This document shows positions 4,893 through 45,845 of a stretch of DNA of 64,000 bases, piece after piece; the stretch's first letter is position 1, and every line of letters begins with the position of its first letter. The position numbers and the translations under genes were made by a program. The notes under the pieces are model-generated. The model was not told the origin of the DNA. It saw nothing but the letters and a program-made list of their open reading frames with translations, and did no database searches. Source of the stretch: an uncultured Bacteroidales bacterium (GTDB taxonomy: Bacteria > Bacteroidota > Bacteroidia > Bacteroidales > JAGOPY01); the NCBI GenBank assembly GCA_963787195.1, contig CAWBCI010000026.1, positions 129,605 to 193,604 of the forward strand, read 5' to 3'.

Positions 4893-6392
4893 TCACTCCT
4901 TTATCCACTTCCCGCCCTCAATCGTTCCTTTCTCGTTTTCTATTCTCCAGATATAGGTTCCCGGCGGAAAATTCGAGGTATTTATGGTGTTATGATCATT
5001 GATTGACTTTCTTGTCAGGATTTCTTTCCCATCTATACTAAAAAGTCTGAAAACCGCATTGGGCCAATCACAGATTATATTCAGATGATCTGATCCGGGA
5101 TTGGGATAAACCAATGCATTGGCCTGGGTGACTGTATGATTTTCAGGTAGGTCCGTCAATATGCCATTGTCATTCACTTTCAAAACCCAGGCATCAAAAT
5201 TCAATGGCGGATCCACATTATGATCACTGTCATATCTTTGATTACAAAGAATTACTCCACCATCACTCGTTACATTTATATCAACATTTAAATAATACTT
5301 ATTATCCAGATTATAATACCGGGTAAACAAATGATTAAAATTTGAATCCAGTTTAGTAAGCGTTATCCAGGATACGACATCTGGATAATACCCGATGGTC
5401 ACATTATGCGTTCCGGATATATAAATATCACCCTCCTGGTTTATGTCAATGGCTCTAAAAAAAGATGGGTAGTCTAAAGTATCTTTCGTTCCAATCATAT
5501 ATGATTCCAGGAAATTAGCATTTGAATCTATTCTAAACACCTGGACATCATCGTCCTGTGTTTTATACGGATAAATATATAGTGCACTCCCCAGCCAACT
5601 TTCAGGGCTTTCTTGAATTATATTGAATGGAGTCCCGATTTCTGGATGGAACTCTTGCATGGAGAGCAAATTAAAATCCAGGTCAAATTTAACCAACTGG
5701 TTTACCCCCCCCTGAAATCCCTGTCCAAATATCCAAATTTGTGTTGAATCAGCATTGAAGCAGGCATCATTTACATGTTGCCCCCCTTCCATTTTAATTA
5801 ACTGCGAACAGATAGTATCGCCATTTGAATTGTACTTATAAAAACAGAGATCACCTGGATCAAAACCTTGATTATTATATGGCTCACTCAGTGAAACGGC
5901 AAAAATAAAATTACCTTCATGATCAGTAAGTAGGTGTTTCGATTTGGTTCTAAAATCATAGTATACTGATGGTATATGAAAAGCTTTTTTTTGGATAATT
6001 TCCAGATCGCTATTAATTAGCATATTATACATCCCATAGGATAAATTCGAATCTAATGATGTATATGTTCCAATTACTAATAAATTTCCTCCAACAGAAA
6101 TAATAGTATTTATACTAATACTTGAATCCGGGAAGTGAACAAATCTTTGAATAGTATTACCATCAATATCTGATTTAATAAAATTCAAGGAGTAATGACC
6201 GGGGACTATACTGTCTCTTATCCCTCCCATGAAATAATAATTATTATCAGTATGCTCATGTGATAGACCAACACTTTCAGAAAATTTCGATTTTAAAAAG
6301 AAACTAAAAGTGGACTGTGCATTGGAAATCATTCCTGAAAAGAAAATCAAGAAAAGAATGGAGATCGATTTAAAAAATGTAATCCCTGGCAT
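4893..6392 (-). CDS. secreted beta-propeller-like protein with T9SS C-terminal sorting domain
   Basis: N-terminal signal peptide. C-terminal ~80 aa (LVYPNPGSDHLNI...FRLFSIDGKEIL...GTYIWRIE) fit the Por/T9SS CTD pattern. Confidence 0.75.
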   Translation of the reverse strand: MPGITFFKSISILFLIFFSGMISNAQSTFSFFLKSKFSESVGLSHEHTDNNYYFMGGIRDSIVPGHYSLNFIKSDIDGNTIQRFVHFPDSSISINTIISVGGNLLVIGTYTSLDSNLSYGMYNMLINSDLEIIQKKAFHIPSVYYDFRTKSKHLLTDHEGNFIFAVSLSEPYNNQGFDPGDLCFYKYNSNGDTICSQLIKMEGGQHVNDACFNADSTQIWIFGQGFQGGVNQLVKFDLDFNLLSMQEFHPEIGTPFNIIQESPESWLGSALYIYPYKTQDDDVQVFRIDSNANFLESYMIGTKDTLDYPSFFRAIDINQEGDIYISGTHNVTIGYYPDVVSWITLTKLDSNFNHLFTRYYNLDNKYYLNVDINVTSDGGVILCNQRYDSDHNVDPPLNFDAWVLKVNDNGILTDLPENHTVTQANALVYPNPGSDHLNIICDWPNAVFRLFSIDGKEILTRKSINDHNTINTSNFPPGTYIWRIENEKGTIEGGKWIKE

Positions 6393-37954: not shown

Positions 37955-38112
37955 GGAGGACGCAAAATCCAGTTCAAAGTTCAAAATTCAAAGTGAAGAG
38001 TTTAAGTTGATTAGTTATTAAGTTTTGTCTGGTGCTTGGTAGGAATAGAAACACAATATCAGCTGAACACACGTACTTCGTCCTTAAAGGACGGCACAAC
38101 AATAGCCCCGGC
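37955..38112 (+). repeat. dispersed ~155-nt repeat, copy R1
   Basis: CCAGTTCAAAGTTCAAAATTCAAAGTGA.GAGTTTAAGTTGATTAGTTATT.AGTTTTGTCTGG.GCTTGGTAGGAATAGAAACACAATATCAGCTGAAC.CACGTACTTCG is shared with R2 with only a few mismatches. REP-like GC hairpins follow. Confidence 0.8.
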
Positions 38113-38241
38113 CTTAGGGCCGGGGGCTTGAATGAACCAGTCCGTACCCCATCCCGAAGGGACAACACGACATAGGCCCGGGCCTTAAAAGTTGGTTCTC
38201 CTGATATTTTTATTCAGGAAAATTTAAAGAAACAATAAGCT

Positions 38242-38547
38242 CTATAAGAAAGCTGCTGCCCCTCCTAAAACAGCACCAAAAACAGTAATTAGTAAAATAA
38301 TCCCTATTAATGAAATCACTAATCCTGCAATGGCTAATCCTTTTGGCTGTTTAAATACACCAACAAAAGATAATATTAGCCCTAACAACCATAGGACCCA
38401 ACCTAAAAAAGGGACCCAACCTAAAAATATTGCGATTAGAGCCAGAACAAAACCAGCAGTTCCAACACCATTCGATCGCTTATCAGTCTGATTAATAATC
38501 ACTGTCTGTCCAGATTGACTTTGTGGGTTTAGAGTATCATTCATCAT
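38242..38547 (-). CDS. small membrane protein (DUF4190-like)
   Basis: 101 aa with a polar N-terminus, then three hydrophobic helices rich in G/L/I/W (GFVLALIAIFLGWVPFLGWVLWLLGLILSFVGVF...). Confidence 0.6.
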   Translation of the reverse strand: MMNDTLNPQSQSGQTVIINQTDKRSNGVGTAGFVLALIAIFLGWVPFLGWVLWLLGLILSFVGVFKQPKGLAIAGLVISLIGIILLITVFGAVLGGAAAFL

Positions 38548-38945: not shown

Positions 38946-39105
38946 GGAGCGACACAAATCCCAGTTCAAAGTTCAAAATTCAAAGTGATGAGTTTAAGTT
39001 GATTAGTTATTTAGTTTTGTCTGGAGCTTGGTAGGAATAGAAACACAATATCAGCTGAACGCACGTACTTCGACCTGAAAGGAGGTCACCGCAATAGCCC
39101 GGGTA
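38946..39105 (+). repeat. dispersed ~155-nt repeat, copy R2
   Basis: Direct copy of R1 about 990 nt downstream. It continues into further REP-like hairpins (GTCCTGAAAGGAC, CCGGCAAAGGCCGG). Confidence 0.8.
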
Positions 39106-39172
39106 TTTATGCCTGGGGAAAAGGACGCCCTTAAAATCGCAAGTCCTGAAAGGACGACACTGGGCCGGCAAA

Positions 39173-39218
39173 GGCCGGGATCTGGTAGCGGAATGCAGAC
39201 AGGGAATGAATTCAGATT
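39173..39218 (+). repeat. 46-nt direct repeat, left copy (island boundary)
   Basis: GGCCGGGATCTGGTAGCGGAATGCAGACAGGGAATGAATTCAGATT is identical to 44336-44381 except for one base. Confidence 0.85.
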
Positions 39219-40012: not shown

Positions 40013-40234
40013 CTATTCCCCTTCCCCAAGAAAATAAATAGAATGAAGGGGTAATTTATTCTTCTTTTCATCCGACAGATTATTGTAGTATTCCTGCCAC
40101 AATTCAATAAAGCGTTCAATATCTATAAGTTCGATGTGTTTTGAGAAGCTGCGGGCTTCCTGGATTGCTGTTTGTTTGGCTCTCGCCATCATGAGTAATA
40201 CAATTTGTAAAACCGTCTTGGTATTTTCACTCAA
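40013..40234 (-). pseudogene. probable C-terminal remnant of an Mrr-like restriction endonuclease
   Basis: ...AIQEARSFSKHIELIDIERFIELWQEYYNNLSDEKKNKLPLHSIYFL resembles the extreme C-terminus of Mrr_cat-type restriction proteins. There is no catalytic region, and only a TTG start that overlaps the upstream stop. Confidence 0.4.
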
Positions 40235-41042
40235 ATAACCTTGTCTGCCTTTCGATTTTAGGATGAAAAGTCCCGATGATCATAAAGGGATTCCGTGAAA
40301 CGTAATGATTCAATTTAGTTGTTCCTAAAAAGAAATGCAGGTCTTTAGTTTTGGAGAAATCATCAAAATATTTTTTTCTTACGTCTTCAATAGCCTTTTT
40401 TTCGTTCCCTTCATGTCTTGCAAGGCAATTCCAGTAAAGTTGTCCGGTCTCCCAGTCTTCTATCATCATATGGCTTTCTGTGCCTTGATTGTCTTTGAAC
40501 ACGAATTTGAACTTATACGGTAATTTCTGGACAACTATAAATCTTCCTTCGGACGTCGTTTCAAAAATATTAAGCTGGTTTAACTTTTCCAGTCTGGCTG
40601 TGTCCCAGTTCCGTTCCACACTTTCGGCTGTGAAATCCATAATTTCAGTCGGCTTGAAAACGGCTAATGAAGTACAAATATTTTTATCTTTTGCTTCTGC
40701 AATAAGTTCGGAAAGATTGTAATAAATCTTCCCGAGACAAATTTTCTTTCGCTCATGCCAGTTCCCGGCGGAAACAATATGGCCTGTTACTTTAATTTCT
40801 TCGTCAATGGTTTTAGGCCGAAAACTTTCCGGTCTGAAATCATTGTTATTTTTTACCAGATCCACTTCTATCCAGTCATATTTCTTGTACTGCTCGTTAT
40901 ATGATTTTTGCCGAAACCGAACCGGATAAATTCTTATCCATGTGCCATCTTCCCTAAAACCAGCTGTGCATACAAGTTCATCATACTTGGAGGAAAGTGT
41001 CGGATAGGTTTTTACAGTGATCAGTACTTTTGTCAATGCCAT
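40227..41042 (-). CDS. hypothetical protein, 271 aa (island gene 4, partner of the DUF488 fusion)
   Basis: Clean ORF. Its ATG lies 2 nt after the upstream stop (TGA-TA-ATG). Beta-rich N-terminus (ITVKTYPTLSSKYDELVCTAGF..WIRIYPVRF) and a C-terminal IEDWETGQLYW...FMIIGTFHPK block. Family not recognised. Confidence 0.7.
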   Translation of the reverse strand: MALTKVLITVKTYPTLSSKYDELVCTAGFREDGTWIRIYPVRFRQKSYNEQYKKYDWIEVDLVKNNNDFRPESFRPKTIDEEIKVTGHIVSAGNWHERKKICLGKIYYNLSELIAEAKDKNICTSLAVFKPTEIMDFTAESVERNWDTARLEKLNQLNIFETTSEGRFIVVQKLPYKFKFVFKDNQGTESHMMIEDWETGQLYWNCLARHEGNEKKAIEDVRKKYFDDFSKTKDLHFFLGTTKLNHYVSRNPFMIIGTFHPKIERQTRLFE

Positions 41043-41044
41043 TA

Positions 41045-41929
41045 TCAGATATGTTTTACTTCATAGTTAAATCCGGCTAATGTCGAAATGGATTCAGCCA
41101 AATGTTTTCTGTGGCATTTATTAATATCGGCTTCAAAACAGGTAAGAGCAATGCGTTGATTTTTCTTTAATATGTTAAATATTTCTTCCTGCTCGTCTAT
41201 AGTCTCTTTCAGGTTATCCATCTTATACCAGGAAAAGAGTTTGTCATAATCCGCCTGGGTATTCAGTTCCTGTCTTTGCCCTGATTGTATGCCTAGCTCC
41301 GGAATATGTACGTATTGTATGCCAAGACTTTCACAGTATCGTTTTAACAGGCTCTTGCTAAAGCCAAATTTCATGCTCAGCGGGTTATTGCGAACGTCGA
41401 CCAACACTTTTACGTCATTCTGAAGTAACCTGACCAAATATTCCTCGAGCGATATGCCTTCATAACCTATGGTGAACAGTACCGTTTTACTACTATCAGG
41501 TTTTGCCGCATTAATCCTCTCAAGCTGTATTATATTCAGAATATTTTCGGCCGCTTCACTTTTTATGGCATAGAAGGGAAAGTTTATATAGGTATGCTTC
41601 ATCAGGGCATTGGCATTCATATGGCCATAGGCGGCTTTCACTTCCTCTGATATCTTCCTGTCTTCCGGTTTAAGCTGTTTCAGGTAATCCGTTTTATCGG
41701 CTTTTTTAAAGTGAGATTTGGTTTCCTGTAAGATCCCTTTTGAGGCCATAGTCGTCATATCTGCATTAGCCGAAAAAGAATAAGAGCCGAATTTGTAAGG
41801 TATAAAATCATAAACGGCCTTCGTCTGCCTCTTCGAAAATAAGAAAAGCAACTTCTGAATCCGGATTTTATCCAATTCGTCTTCAAAAAGCTGTAATAAG
41901 GCCAAGATGACTTTTCTCCTGTAAAACAT
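41045..41929 (-). CDS. fusion protein: wHTH/Panacea-like N-domain plus C-terminal DUF488
   Basis: The C-terminal half (LFTIGYEGISLEEY...LVDVRNNPLSMKFGFSK...LGIQYVHIPELG...ALTCFEADINKCHRKHLA) matches the long DUF488 pattern. The N-terminal IQKLLFLFSKRQTKAVYDFIPYKFGSYSF weakly resembles DUF4065/SocA-type domains. Confidence 0.75.
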   Translation of the reverse strand: MFYRRKVILALLQLFEDELDKIRIQKLLFLFSKRQTKAVYDFIPYKFGSYSFSANADMTTMASKGILQETKSHFKKADKTDYLKQLKPEDRKISEEVKAAYGHMNANALMKHTYINFPFYAIKSEAAENILNIIQLERINAAKPDSSKTVLFTIGYEGISLEEYLVRLLQNDVKVLVDVRNNPLSMKFGFSKSLLKRYCESLGIQYVHIPELGIQSGQRQELNTQADYDKLFSWYKMDNLKETIDEQEEIFNILKKNQRIALTCFEADINKCHRKHLAESISTLAGFNYEVKHI

Positions 41930-42121
41930 TTTGCAAAGTTACGCTCTATAATGAGATTTCTAAAGCTAAATCCTTTTTGAATGCTGAAATAGTCTAAACT
42001 ATAATTTTGAAGGAATGACTAATAAATATTACTACTGATATTCCATGCTGGTTCCGTCAACACGATTTTTAAATTCTGTATTGCGCAGGTGGTCAGGATG
42101 TCTTGTTATTGTGTGTAGTGA

Positions 42122-42838: not shown

Positions 42839-43672
42839 TCATTTAATCTTATTGAGGTATTTATAGTGAGCTTTAATATTATGAAAATAGTAGCTTCCTA
42901 TCGAATTAGAGTTAATTAATTCATCATACACTTTCTTTGGAACATCTACGTATTGGAAAACATCACCATGATGGAATTCTATTTCCATAATCTTATTTTC
43001 AGCATCATAACCTATAGAAGCAATATTGGAAGAACTAACAGGAATCCTTTTTATGTTTTGTGTATGGAATTCTGTCAGCATTTTTGCAACACCGGCTGAT
43101 ACATACATTTGGTACCTGCTGGTTGGTTTTTCGGGTAGGATAAGTTGCAGCCAGCCTAATTCTACTAAAGGTTTAATGTGTCTCGTGTAATTTTTATTAT
43201 TATTGTAAAGCGCTATAAATTCAAATATGTCCTCGCGAGATTTTGCTTCAGTACAAAATTTTAAAATCGAAAAAATAGTGTCTCCGATTTTACTTATCAA
43301 TTCATTTCTGTCTTTGGTCCATCCTTGGTCCTTTACTGACCTAAGATAAGAATCAATTTCTTCTAATGTTTTAATATCCGGTATTTTATCTTTGGCTCTA
43401 TCTTTGGCTCCGGTTAATTTCACAGCACCAGCAAGAGGATGGATTTTAATTGTGCAAAGAAAATAAGACCTGTCATCATCGGTTTCGAAAACCGGTGGCG
43501 GCGACCCGTTTTTCTCCAATTCGCTGTGTATTATATTGTAAAATCTTACTGATTCGGCGCTGCCGGGAACTATGGTTATATCCACCGGATTCCATCCCTT
43601 TTTCAACTCAATCCTATCCCATTCAACGGTATGGCCATTAATCAGTTCATTTATATTTATGGGTAGTTCCAA
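42839..43672 (-). CDS. mosaic protein: collapsed AlbA_2/HATPase_c_4-type regulator, wHTH and C-terminal KTSC domain
   Basis: The N-terminal [21 protein letters not shown] (AlbA_2 start) runs directly into [25 protein letters not shown] (end of HATPase_c_4). Then come [25 protein letters not shown] (wHTH tail) and [51 protein letters not shown] (KTSC). Confidence 0.65.
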
Positions 43673-44249
43673 ATTAATATTTCTATGGATTCTTGAAAAG
43701 CTATTTATGATTTCTCAAATAATCGATTTTGATTTCAGCAAGTTTTAAAACATCCCTGGTCTTTTTTCATTTGAATTAAATTGCTTGCCATTGCTTGTTA
43801 AAAGTACGCGGATAATTTTACCCCGTGGATTTTTTTTACAATAGTTGTCAACACAAAAGTCTAATTATCGGGAAGATTGCATTCTGTAAAATTTAGGGAA
43901 TACCACCATATTCTCCTGCTCAAATTCTCATTTATGTGTTCATTTTCCATTTTCAATATATATTATACTTCGTTTATATTTAATGCATAAATGCAATATT
44001 TGTATAATTTTAAAAGGTAGATTTTTTTTATCCCGGCAAACTTGATGAACGAAATTTCGGGATAATTTTATGAAAATCAAAATTTTATTTAATGAAGAAA
44101 ATGATTTCAGATAGCCGGATTCAGATTTCAGATTTACGTCTTCCAGGATGGAAGTATAATAATTCTGACTGTTTCGCTTTGCCGGCGTCACTGCAAAAAG
44201 CTATCAGATCTTGACTTTCGTCAGGATGACGCCACATCTTGCTTAATAG

Positions 44250-44302
44250 AAAAGCGGCGCGGCACGCCTTGAAGATTTCCAGAGGTGTGCCGCGCCGCTT
44301 TT
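44250..44302 (-). terminator. strong stem-loop terminator downstream of the RND operon (bidirectional form)
   Basis: AAAAGCGGCGCGGCACGCC-loop-GGTGTGCCGCGCCGCTTTT has a roughly 19-bp GC-rich stem flanked by an A-run and a T-run. Confidence 0.75.
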
Positions 44303-44335
44303 ATAAAAATACCATAAAGACGTCATCCCGGCGCA

Positions 44336-44381
44336 GGCCGGGATCTGGTAGCGGAATGCAGACAGGGAATGAAATCAGATT
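44336..44381 (+). repeat. 46-nt direct repeat, right copy (island boundary)
   Basis: GGCCGGGATCTGGTAGCGGAATGCAGACAGGGAATGAAATCAGATT. It is preceded by the REP-like hairpin ATCCCGGC-GCA-GGCCGGGAT. Confidence 0.85.
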
Positions 44382-44477: not shown

Positions 44478-45845
44478 TCAGAAACTGAACTTCAGACTGA
44501 ATACAAATTCATCCTTATCCTTCAGCATTGCAAAAGCGCTTTCCCCTTCTCCCCGGATCAACCTCAGGCCTAGTGAAATTGTGGTATTCAGGTTAGGCAT
44601 GTAATCGATCGAAGGCATATAAATCCAAGCGTAATTGCCCGGAATATCCTTCCAGTCTGAAACTACAAAAGCCATCGTTAGCGGTTTGATATTCAGTTTA
44701 TCTTCAAAAAATTTCTTCTCATAATTCAAAACAAAATAATCATTCAGGTTCTTTGATCCCATTTCATTCATAAAACCATGTAGATACTGGAAATTCAAAT
44801 AAGATCCATCGCTAAAACTGTAATCCCCGCCGATAACGAATTTGATATAAGGAGTATTATCCAGTAATAGCGTATCAGTGGGAGGAAGACCGAATGAAGA
44901 AAGATCATTGCTGGCAATTACTTTATTTTCCGGAATAAAAGCCGCAGCCTCGGCCCAAAGACCGATGCCCTTCACAGAAGTTGCCATATCGGCGCCAATG
45001 ATGTGCTGCCTCGGGTAAGACATATAGGAACGTATGTCTAAAGCACCTTCCATACCGACCGGTGCGATTACGTTATGATATGGCAGGGGCAACTGTGTCC
45101 GGCCATAGACATAACTCAGCGAAAAATCAATACTGCTGAGATATCCCCCGAATTTCAGGCCGTAAGTCGAATTCCCGCGTAAGTTCAGGGCAGGCATGGC
45201 CAGGCTGTCGGAAAAATTCGCAAGGTAAAATCCGGCGGGGACCGGGATAGAAGTTGTCAGGGCGGAAGACCAATCGCCTAAAGGCAAGGTGGCCGGCCTG
45301 AACAGGGCAATATAGTCGCCTTCTATGTAAAAATCCTTGATGTAATAAGTGGCATGTATACCGTCCGAGCCATTATGCCGGCCGAAATCCCAGATATCCT
45401 CCAGGTCATATGAATTCAGATTATCCGTTGGATTCAGCCGGTCGGCAGTGCCCCAGGCAATCCGCTGCCTTCCGATCTTGACATCCAGGTTCTTACTGAG
45501 AAAACCGTATAATTCCACATAGGCTTCACGTATATCAATATTATAAGGTGAAGTTAGATCCTTGTTGAACAATTGATCCGTATTCGTTATCAAAGGAAAA
45601 CCAAATGACCTCAGCCAGACTTCACTGTGGAATTTAGCCTTATCGGTAAATTTTTTCTCCAGTTGAAGGTCCAGGCGGTTTTCATTCCATGACCATTGCC
45701 CGTCATTCAGCCTGAAACGATTGTCGGTATAAATCTCTCCATAGAGTTTTATTGGATTTTCCTGTGCCTGCAAACGGGTAAAAGGAAGCAAGGAAATAAG
45801 GATCAAGCCGGCCAAAATTCTTCGTTTTAAACTTCTTCTTTTCAT
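44478..45845 (-). CDS. outer-membrane beta-barrel (porin-like) protein
   Basis: Signal peptide, beta-strand periodicity and a C-terminal ...FSLKFSF aromatic terminus. Last gene of the RND operon. Confidence 0.6.
   Translation of the reverse strand: MKRRSLKRRILAGLILISLLPFTRLQAQENPIKLYGEIYTDNRFRLNDGQWSWNENRLDLQLEKKFTDKAKFHSEVWLRSFGFPLITNTDQLFNKDLTSPYNIDIREAYVELYGFLSKNLDVKIGRQRIAWGTADRLNPTDNLNSYDLEDIWDFGRHNGSDGIHATYYIKDFYIEGDYIALFRPATLPLGDWSSALTTSIPVPAGFYLANFSDSLAMPALNLRGNSTYGLKFGGYLSSIDFSLSYVYGRTQLPLPYHNVIAPVGMEGALDIRSYMSYPRQHIIGADMATSVKGIGLWAEAAAFIPENKVIASNDLSSFGLPPTDTLLLDNTPYIKFVIGGDYSFSDGSYLNFQYLHGFMNEMGSKNLNDYFVLNYEKKFFEDKLNIKPLTMAFVVSDWKDIPGNYAWIYMPSIDYMPNLNTTISLGLRLIRGEGESAFAMLKDKDEFVFSLKFSF

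Follow-up and report, generated by a model that had tools for sequence, protein, structure and literature searches.

We examined a 64,000-nt stretch of contig CAWBCI010000026.1 (positions 129,605 to 193,604; assembly GCA_963787195.1) from an uncultured Bacteroidales bacterium, hereafter the window, and focused on two adjacent genes, here called A and B, whose products of 294 and 271 aa had been singled out in a first-pass annotation as a candidate novel conflict module. There is hardly any room for doubt that the pair is a member of the PADLOC candidate system PDC-M19; it is a further copy of a catalogued, functionally unsolved candidate, and its novelty as a pair fails. We consider it probable that the pair has a conflict, defence or addiction role, and the chances are about even that the two genes constitute a self-contained and horizontally mobile conflict module which, as a member of PDC-M19, follows a DarTG-like logic. 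New in our analysis are the assignment of B as a probable tandem OB-fold-like protein, the recurrent Panacea- and DarG-C-like signal in A, and the linkage of B to DUF488 across phyla in three gene arrangements. The pair and its immediate signals are as follows:

41929..41045, minus strand: gene A, an open reading frame (ORF) of 294 aa, N-domain fused to DUF488; PADLOC PDC-M19A
41043..41044, minus strand: spacer TA, 2 nt, separating the A stop codon (TGA) from the B start codon (ATG), as read from the sequence
41042..40227, minus strand: gene B, an ORF of 271 aa, probably tandem OB-fold-like; PADLOC PDC-M19B
41934..41941, minus strand: TAACTTTG, an exact match to TAnnTTTG, 4 nt 5' of the ATG of A

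Both ORFs were present as first described, with a gap of 2 nt between the stop of A and the ATG of B, and the letters across the junction read ...AAA CAT ATC TGA TA ATG GCA.... That A and B form a genuine operon is in our view certain; the junction is co-transcribed, and the translation of the two genes is probably coupled. Both genes were full length, with family hidden Markov models (HMMs) matched end to end and all invariant residues kept. The motif TAnnTTTG is the Bacteroidota -7 promoter consensus, and TAACTTTG is a possible promoter of the A-B operon, whose leader would then be very short or absent.

The assignment to PDC-M19 was carried by matches over the whole length of both proteins in PADLOC-DB v2. 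Protein A aligned to the PDC-M19A model PDLC04505 with residues 1-294 of 294 (E 2.2e-126) and protein B to the PDC-M19B model PDLC04508 with residues 1-270 against model positions 1-269 of 269 (E 3.6e-128). The gene order in the window, A before B, adjacent and on the same strand, is that of the PDC-M19 cassette (FAM_02799>>FAM_02993), and nothing structural sets the two apart. Supplementary file 8 of Payne, Hughes, Fineran and Jackson (bioRxiv 10.1101/2024.01.29.577857) lists this cassette as CAS_00089 with a count of 174 and the decision 'Assign as candidate PDC-M19', and the 145 PDC systems were declared untested by the authors themselves. PHROG families of uncharacterised function exist for both proteins as well (phrog_14939 for A, E 7.7e-63; phrog_25907 for B, E 8e-64), and the Pfam models DUF488-N3a and DuOB already touch both families. 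The suggestion that the pair is not among the named systems had therefore to be abandoned. Embedding in a Type I restriction-modification (RM) locus defined PDC-M19 and is repeated among the related loci, whereas the copy in the window does not lie within RM genes; its surroundings are a small AT-rich island that also contains remnants of genes.

The pairing was compared across 85 related loci, 80 from GTDB species genomes and five from metagenome or genome look-ups. Gene A lay directly upstream of B on the same strand in 84 of them, the sole exception being cut by a contig end, and the two genes were 1-3 nt apart in 72 loci, whereas in four they overlapped by 4 nt. A neighbourhood check of this kind had been proposed for the co-occurrence of the 271-aa family with DUF488 fusions, which at 84/85 loci is far beyond chance. 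The two genes are obligate neighbours and move as a pair from one genomic context to another, unrelated one. Copies from Bacteroidota were mostly chromosomal, and a single close relative was found in IMG/VR. On a phage contig of that database, a full-length A-like gene (293 aa, 29% identity over both domains, E 2e-46) is followed by a B-like gene, and genes for portal, capsid and cement proteins adjoin the two. In lineages other than Bacteroidota, the neighbour of the B homologue was a short DUF488 gene with no N-domain. These two genes were convergent with overlapping 3' ends on Rhizobium pRL8, in Streptomyces canus, on Burkholderia pYS1, on Pseudomonas plasmids and in seven Gordonia phages, and co-directional in Calothrix, with B preceding DUF488. 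On pRL8, the DUF488 partner passed the DUF488-N3a model (34.1 vs 27 bits), and the gene that follows encodes the Uzume component UzuA. In the Gordonia phages, the B homologue gp43 follows the immunity repressor, and the pair also lies beside the integrase. The DUF488 partner in Gordonia phage Nymphadora (NC_031061) is gp42 (5816-6268, minus strand), with PDC-M19A as its best PADLOC match (E 5e-29) and 33.6% identity to A. A DUF488 neighbour of the B homologue was not detectable on Sulfolobus pSOG2, the sole such case. Overall, the partnership of B with DUF488 is obligate and ancient, and spans bacterial phyla, plasmids and phages. We also considered gp44 of the Gordonia phages ('immunity repressor') as an A homologue and rejected it (BLASTP E 0.09), as it is an HTH_31 protein. 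The gp42 product is annotated as 'HipA toxin' in Nymphadora, apparently wrongly, and as 'hypothetical protein' in its sister phages.

The genes around the pair were variable. Clustering of 607 flanking proteins from 81 loci gave no conserved third gene, the largest cluster covering eight loci. An RM-type gene lay within five genes in at least 21 of 80 loci, with Type ISP neighbours in eight, HsdM in seven, and HsdS, Eco57I-like IIG and MmeI-like neighbours in four each. In one locus (L051, 3470-12508), the pair was embedded in a Type I RM operon in the order hsdS, AAA_15 ATPase, A, B, hsdR. Other recurring neighbours were tyrosine integrases (four loci), DUF3024, which is PDC-S43 (four loci), and DUF3644, which is PDC-S19 (three loci). 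Among 150 immediate neighbours scanned with PADLOC, components of MADS, PARIS AriA and PbeA turned up as well. The variable flanks, the RM neighbours, the embedding in a Type I RM operon and the presence on plasmids and in phages fit the reading as a conflict module that had been offered at the outset. Some details of these neighbourhoods were recorded in addition. The DUF3644 gene begins 1-2 nt past B in its three loci (L059, L063, L066) and the DUF3024 gene adjoins the pair in its four (L001, L009, L056, L083); each may be an optional third component or a cassette that travels along with the pair. The Type I RM operon of L051 houses two cassettes side by side, the AAA_15/AAA_21 ATPase gene and A-B.

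Protein B, which the first-pass annotation could not assign, received an assignment at the level of the fold from an AlphaFold2 (AF2) model and Foldseek, although no Pfam family matched it above threshold and Pfam, NCBIfam and PHROGs gave no functional name. Its homologues numbered 6590 at E<=1e-3 in a database clustered at 90% identity, or 2062 clusters at 50% identity, and the best 120 were 76-86% identical and mostly from Bacteroidota. The AF2 model, built from an alignment of 86 sequences, was confident (pLDDT 94.6, pTM 0.91), and its Foldseek matches in the PDB included Teb1 AB (E 6.6e-5), CST/CTC1 on telomeric single-stranded DNA (ssDNA; E 6.5e-4), p202 HIN2 (E 8.5e-3), ribosomal S12 and Pot1. 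In BFVD, it matched the baculovirus LEF-3 ssDNA-binding proteins (E 2e-5 to 2.4e-4) as well as phage ssDNA-binding proteins. The best structural matches were thus tandem OB ssDNA binders of the RPA70/Teb1/CTC1/LEF-3 kind, with TM-scores of 0.19-0.33, and because these are low the tandem-OB call is one of fold class. At 7-11% identity, there is no sequence similarity between B and these proteins, and B differs from them in its own set of invariant acidic and basic residues and in having no replication context. On the strength of the model, B is probably a tandem OB-fold-like nucleic-acid binder and would be expected to bind ssDNA or DNA ends. A comparison of its N-half with its C-half in hhalign detected no internal duplication.

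The Pfam model DuOB (PF22557, 'Dual OB-containing domain', cut-off 27 bits) left the window B unmatched and gave E 0.053 for one of the 86 family members. DuOB was the best match of two distant homologues, Gordonia phage gp43 and the ORF of the archaeal plasmid pSOG2, at a sub-threshold 18.6-18.7 bits (E ~2e-3), and precomputed Pfam data showed no DuOB annotation for actinobacterial B homologues, nor was anything relevant on DuOB found in the literature searched; judged from these profiles, the relationship appears distant at most. The Rhizobium partner passes the companion model DUF488-N3a, whereas both window proteins fall short (A at 19.9 bits, B unmatched by DuOB). Within the B family, R37, D68, R70, D196 and W197 were invariant. 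Conservation in the first barrel covered K11, P14, S17, E22, C25-T-A-G28, R37, P40, R44, K54, D68, R70, E72, S73, W95 and R98, and a second cluster was formed by D196-W197-E198. A catalytic role of B is possible because these conserved residues exceed what a generic ssDNA binder needs.

Protein A falls into two parts:

41495..41929, minus strand: residues 1-145 of A, a winged-helix-like helical N-domain with remote similarity to SocA/Panacea (DUF4065) and the DarG C-domain
41093..41449, minus strand: residues 161-279 of A, DUF488 (Pfam PF04343)

The DUF488 call of the first-pass annotation was borne out, as A matched PF04343 with 83 bits (gathering cut-off 22.2; E 3.5e-23) and carried the conserved motifs. 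Against DUF488-N3a (PF22751, 'Active DUF488-N3 subclade'), A reached its 19.9 bits over residues 242-282 only (E 9.7e-4; cut-off 27). The motifs GYEG, DVRxxPLSxKxGxSK and CFE-x5-CHR, the last comprising C264, E266, C272, H273 and R274, were invariant in 119 close homologues and also kept in the DUF488 partners of Rhizobium and a Gordonia phage at ~35% identity to A. Protein A had 7008 homologues, and the best 120 were ~72% identical (range ~70-79%), 118 of them being 294 aa long. Its AF2 model was poor (pLDDT 70) because only close homologues were available; from this low-confidence model, Foldseek placed SsoPTP on top in the PDB, which is a weak match (E 7.8e-3, probability 0.98), followed by LSF2/SEX4, PRL-3, Cdc14, VH1 and PTPMT1. 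The motif C264-x7-C272-H-R274 differs from the CX5R P-loop of cysteine phosphatases. Sequence searches of the PDB with A, B and their family profiles gave nothing meaningful. From the modelled fold and the motif, we infer that DUF488 may be an enzyme that processes phosphoryl groups in a cysteine-dependent manner, with nucleotides or the termini of nucleic acids as its targets. The RapZ-C/DUF488/DUF4326 clade was reportedly predicted by Burroughs and Aravind in 2023 to serve DNA-end processing in conflict systems. An archaeal fusion of a CTP-binding ParB-CTPase with DUF488 and an HTH domain also ties DUF488 to DNA-associated machinery. In the literature searched, we found no described function, substrate or activity of DUF488. 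Deletion of yeaO, a DUF488 gene of E. coli, shifts CRISPR spacer acquisition almost entirely to an IS4 locus (bioRxiv 10.1101/2024.05.24.595836), an effect that hints at a DNA-fragment or DNA-end biology for DUF488; the authors of that study remark that no yeaO literature exists.

The N-domain of A gave remote matches to several families. Residues 15-96 aligned to positions 183-264 of the NCBIfam DarG equivalog (E 2.3e-4), and the scores against DarG models were 19-20.5 bits, compared with an equivalog cut-off of 250. Further matches were to PADLOC DarG (E 1.9e-4) and, in a Type I S-subunit model, to a C-terminal extension (E 2.1e-5). When the N-domain was searched in isolation, the top Pfam match was SocA_Panacea (PF13274; 16.0 bits, E 0.024; gathering cut-off 25.7 bits), and the same family was the top or only Pfam match in six of nine orthologous N-domains (E 2.7e-4 to 0.069), the best reaching 22.3 bits. 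Including the window, SocA_Panacea was thus the top or only match in 7/10 N-domains, in colinear alignments that all remained sub-threshold, and in one phage homologue the alignment covered model positions 2-112 of 113. The AF2 model showed, at low confidence, a helix-strand-helix-helix-hairpin order. Calling the N-domain Panacea-like, as the first-pass annotation had done, was reasonable as a remote homology call given the recurrent top match, whereas no score reached the 25.7-bit cut-off. We describe it as 'Panacea/DarG-C-like' by remote similarity, outside the family proper, and refrain from assigning it to Panacea or DarG because all matches were below the curated cut-offs. It would be expected to serve as a partner-binding domain. 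Panacea antitoxins counter a wide range of unrelated toxins by binding to them directly, and in DarG such binding is accompanied by enzymatic reversal (Kurata et al. 2022, PMC8832971).

In the mechanism that we favour, and put forward tentatively, B would be the effector and A its neutraliser. As the dual-OB, DNA-directed component, B would bind ssDNA or DNA ends, which could be those of intermediates in replication or packaging, and would be harmful or restrictive when unchecked. The Panacea/DarG-C-like N-domain of A would bind B directly as a type II-like check and tether A to B, and DUF488, with its cysteine-phosphatase-like Cys-Glu...Cys-His-Arg centre, would remove or process a phosphate-linked group on a nucleic-acid end or nucleotide in a type IV-like manner. 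Infection or loss of the module would tip the balance towards B. In one form of this proposal, B would be a new enzymatic or covalently acting DNA-directed toxin on a dual-OB scaffold, with R37/D68/R70/E72 and D196-W197-E198 as its active site, and DUF488 would reverse the product of B on ssDNA or DNA ends. This form strikes us as distinctly unlikely; if true, the pair would be a new DarTG-like DNA-modification defence or toxin-antitoxin (TA) pair and would supply the first biochemical function for DUF488, a large family that has E. coli YeaO among its members.

Similar to DarTG, one protein combines an enzymatic and a partner-binding domain and is paired with a protein that, in the case of B by prediction, is aimed at ssDNA, and the N-domain of A matches the C-domain region of DarG (E 2e-4). 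In contrast to DarTG, A has no macrodomain and B no ADP-ribosyltransferase fold, and neither matched DarT or Macro models. The order of domains is also reversed, the binding domain of A being N-terminal, as is the order of genes, with the neutraliser gene first, and the 20.5 bits of A stand against the DarG equivalog cut-off of 250. With PanAT (Kurata et al., PMC8832971), the pair shares the recurrent SocA_Panacea match and a tight two-gene operon of mobile, patchy distribution. It differs from PanAT in that the match of A is sub-threshold, in that PanA proteins are not described as fused to DUF488, in that B is absent from the toxin types listed in the sections of that source consulted, and in that the DUF488 partners in other phyla have no Panacea-like domain.

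Several observations weigh against the reading as a DarTG-like conflict module. The matches of A to Panacea and DarG were all below curated thresholds, its phosphatase-fold assignment leans on weak Foldseek scores from a model of pLDDT 70 and on what Burroughs and Aravind reportedly predicted, and the OB-fold matches of B had low TM-scores (0.27-0.33). No toxin fold was detected in B. Outside Bacteroidota, a DUF488 partner without the N-domain and a convergent gene order are unusual for a classical type II TA system. About three quarters of the loci had no RM neighbour. A and B are ~72-86% identical across Bacteroidota families, unlike fast-evolving arms-race proteins; such high conservation, which extends over several Bacteroidota orders, despite a patchy, mobile distribution suggests a strongly constrained target or interface. 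In addition, we found no phenotype, mechanism or experimental test of PDC-M19 in the literature searched.

The main rival to the DarTG-like reading is a defence system composed of an enzyme and an adaptor instead of a TA pair, which we judge to be somewhat unlikely. Here, B would be a harmless sensor of ssDNA or DNA ends and the targeting subunit, and the DUF488 of A would be the effector that alters or removes terminal phosphate-linked groups on the DNA or RNA ends of an invader, blocking ligation, replication or packaging, while the N-domain of A would merely dock onto B or DNA. This arrangement agrees with DUF488, whether or not the N-domain is attached, being the universally conserved partner of B and looking enzymatic, with the resemblance of B to a non-catalytic OB scaffold, and with the DNA-end processing reportedly predicted by Burroughs and Aravind; the convergent gene arrangements speak against a classical TA operon, and embedding in RM loci is consistent with it too. 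However, the invariant charged residues of B (R37, D68, R70, D196, W197, E198) exceed the need of a generic ssDNA binder, a Panacea-like domain is typical of antitoxins (PMC8832971), and no DUF488 substrate or activity was found in the literature searched.

Mobile-element maintenance is less likely than such an enzyme-adaptor system, and we regard it as improbable. The pair would then be an accessory DNA-metabolism module with no immune role, in which an ssDNA binder and an end-processing enzyme aid replication, conjugative transfer, recombination or counter-defence of plasmids, phages and islands. B homologues do occur on conjugative plasmids (Sulfolobus pSOG2, IncP pYS1, pRL8) and in phages, B was likened to viral ssDNA-binding proteins such as LEF-3, and sequence conservation is high. 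Yet most Bacteroidota copies lie on chromosomes and show no conserved replication or transfer genes in their vicinity, IMG/VR yielded a single close relative, the temperate Gordonia phages carry the pair in their lysogeny/immunity region and not in the replication module, and the pair recurs within or beside RM and other defence genes. It is very improbable, finally, that the local copy is a decaying, non-functional passenger of a degraded AT-rich island: a 73-aa PDC-S02-like C-terminal fragment, a chimeric 277-aa KTSC/Fic-like_C ORF and the lack of an integrase in the island would suit decay, whereas A and B are full length with end-to-end HMM matches, all invariant residues and an intact 2-nt junction.

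DUF488 is a large family across prokaryotes, and the B family is large too and has no Pfam family. Since their obligate partnership spans Bacteroidota, Proteobacteria, Actinobacteria, Cyanobacteria, plasmids and phages, and B is probably a tandem-OB nucleic-acid binder, the link offers a testable handle on DUF488 chemistry, namely the processing of nucleic-acid ends or nucleotides coupled to ssDNA recognition. Were PDC-M19 confirmed as a defence system, it would represent a new effector logic.

The local setting of the pair in the window comprised the following features:

39165-39218 and 44328-44381, plus strand: 54-nt direct repeat, 94% identical, bracketing the ~5.1-kb AT-rich island that holds the pair
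40234..40013, minus strand: 73-aa ORF with a TTG start, overlapping the end of B by 8 nt
42839-43672, minus strand: 277-aa ORF with a Fic-like_C winged-helix stretch (E 3.9e-5) and a C-terminal KTSC match (E 8e-22)

The AT-rich island noted in the first-pass annotation was evident, with a GC fraction of 0.30-0.38 across 38-44 kb compared to ~0.42-0.48 in the flanks. The 38-nt core of the 54-nt repeat has just these two copies in the window, and neither further copies nor an empty site were found in metagenome contigs; the pair of repeats may stem from an ancient att-like duplication, or it may be an intergenic repeat that occurs twice. No integrase was present in the island. The 73-aa ORF, named as an Mrr-like remnant in the first-pass annotation, matched PADLOC PDC-S02 models over just their C-terminal ~45 residues (E 8e-7) and, from this match, is probably what is left of a different candidate defence gene; its identity as a DUF3644/PDC-S19 fragment was also tested, and the two were unrelated. 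The 277-aa ORF looks like a chimeric or internally deleted gene. The ORFs adjoining the pair in the window (188, 220, 277, 73 and 83 aa) had no counterparts near the pair in other loci and are for this reason placed outside the system.

Further elements lay at the edges of this region. A DUF805 RNA motif (Rfam RF03081; 38562-38631, minus strand) scored 74.2 bits against a gathering cut-off of 51.1 (E 9e-13) and is located directly upstream of an ORF for a 101-aa membrane protein (38547..38242). A 168-nt direct repeat (88%) occupies 37959-38126 and 38951-39118, and a hairpin-rich unit of ~31 nt (CGTCCTTAAAGGACGGCACAACAATAGCCCC-like) occurs in several copies, one of which is a sub-threshold match to the Acido-Lenti-1 RNA (27 vs 37 bits); together, the 168-nt repeat and the ~31-nt units look like a family of repeated intergenic elements. 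On the other side of the pair, a 23-bp inverted repeat (44247-44305; 91% complementary, 13-nt loop) is terminator-like and lies downstream of a gene for a 455-aa outer-membrane-like protein (44478..45845, minus strand).

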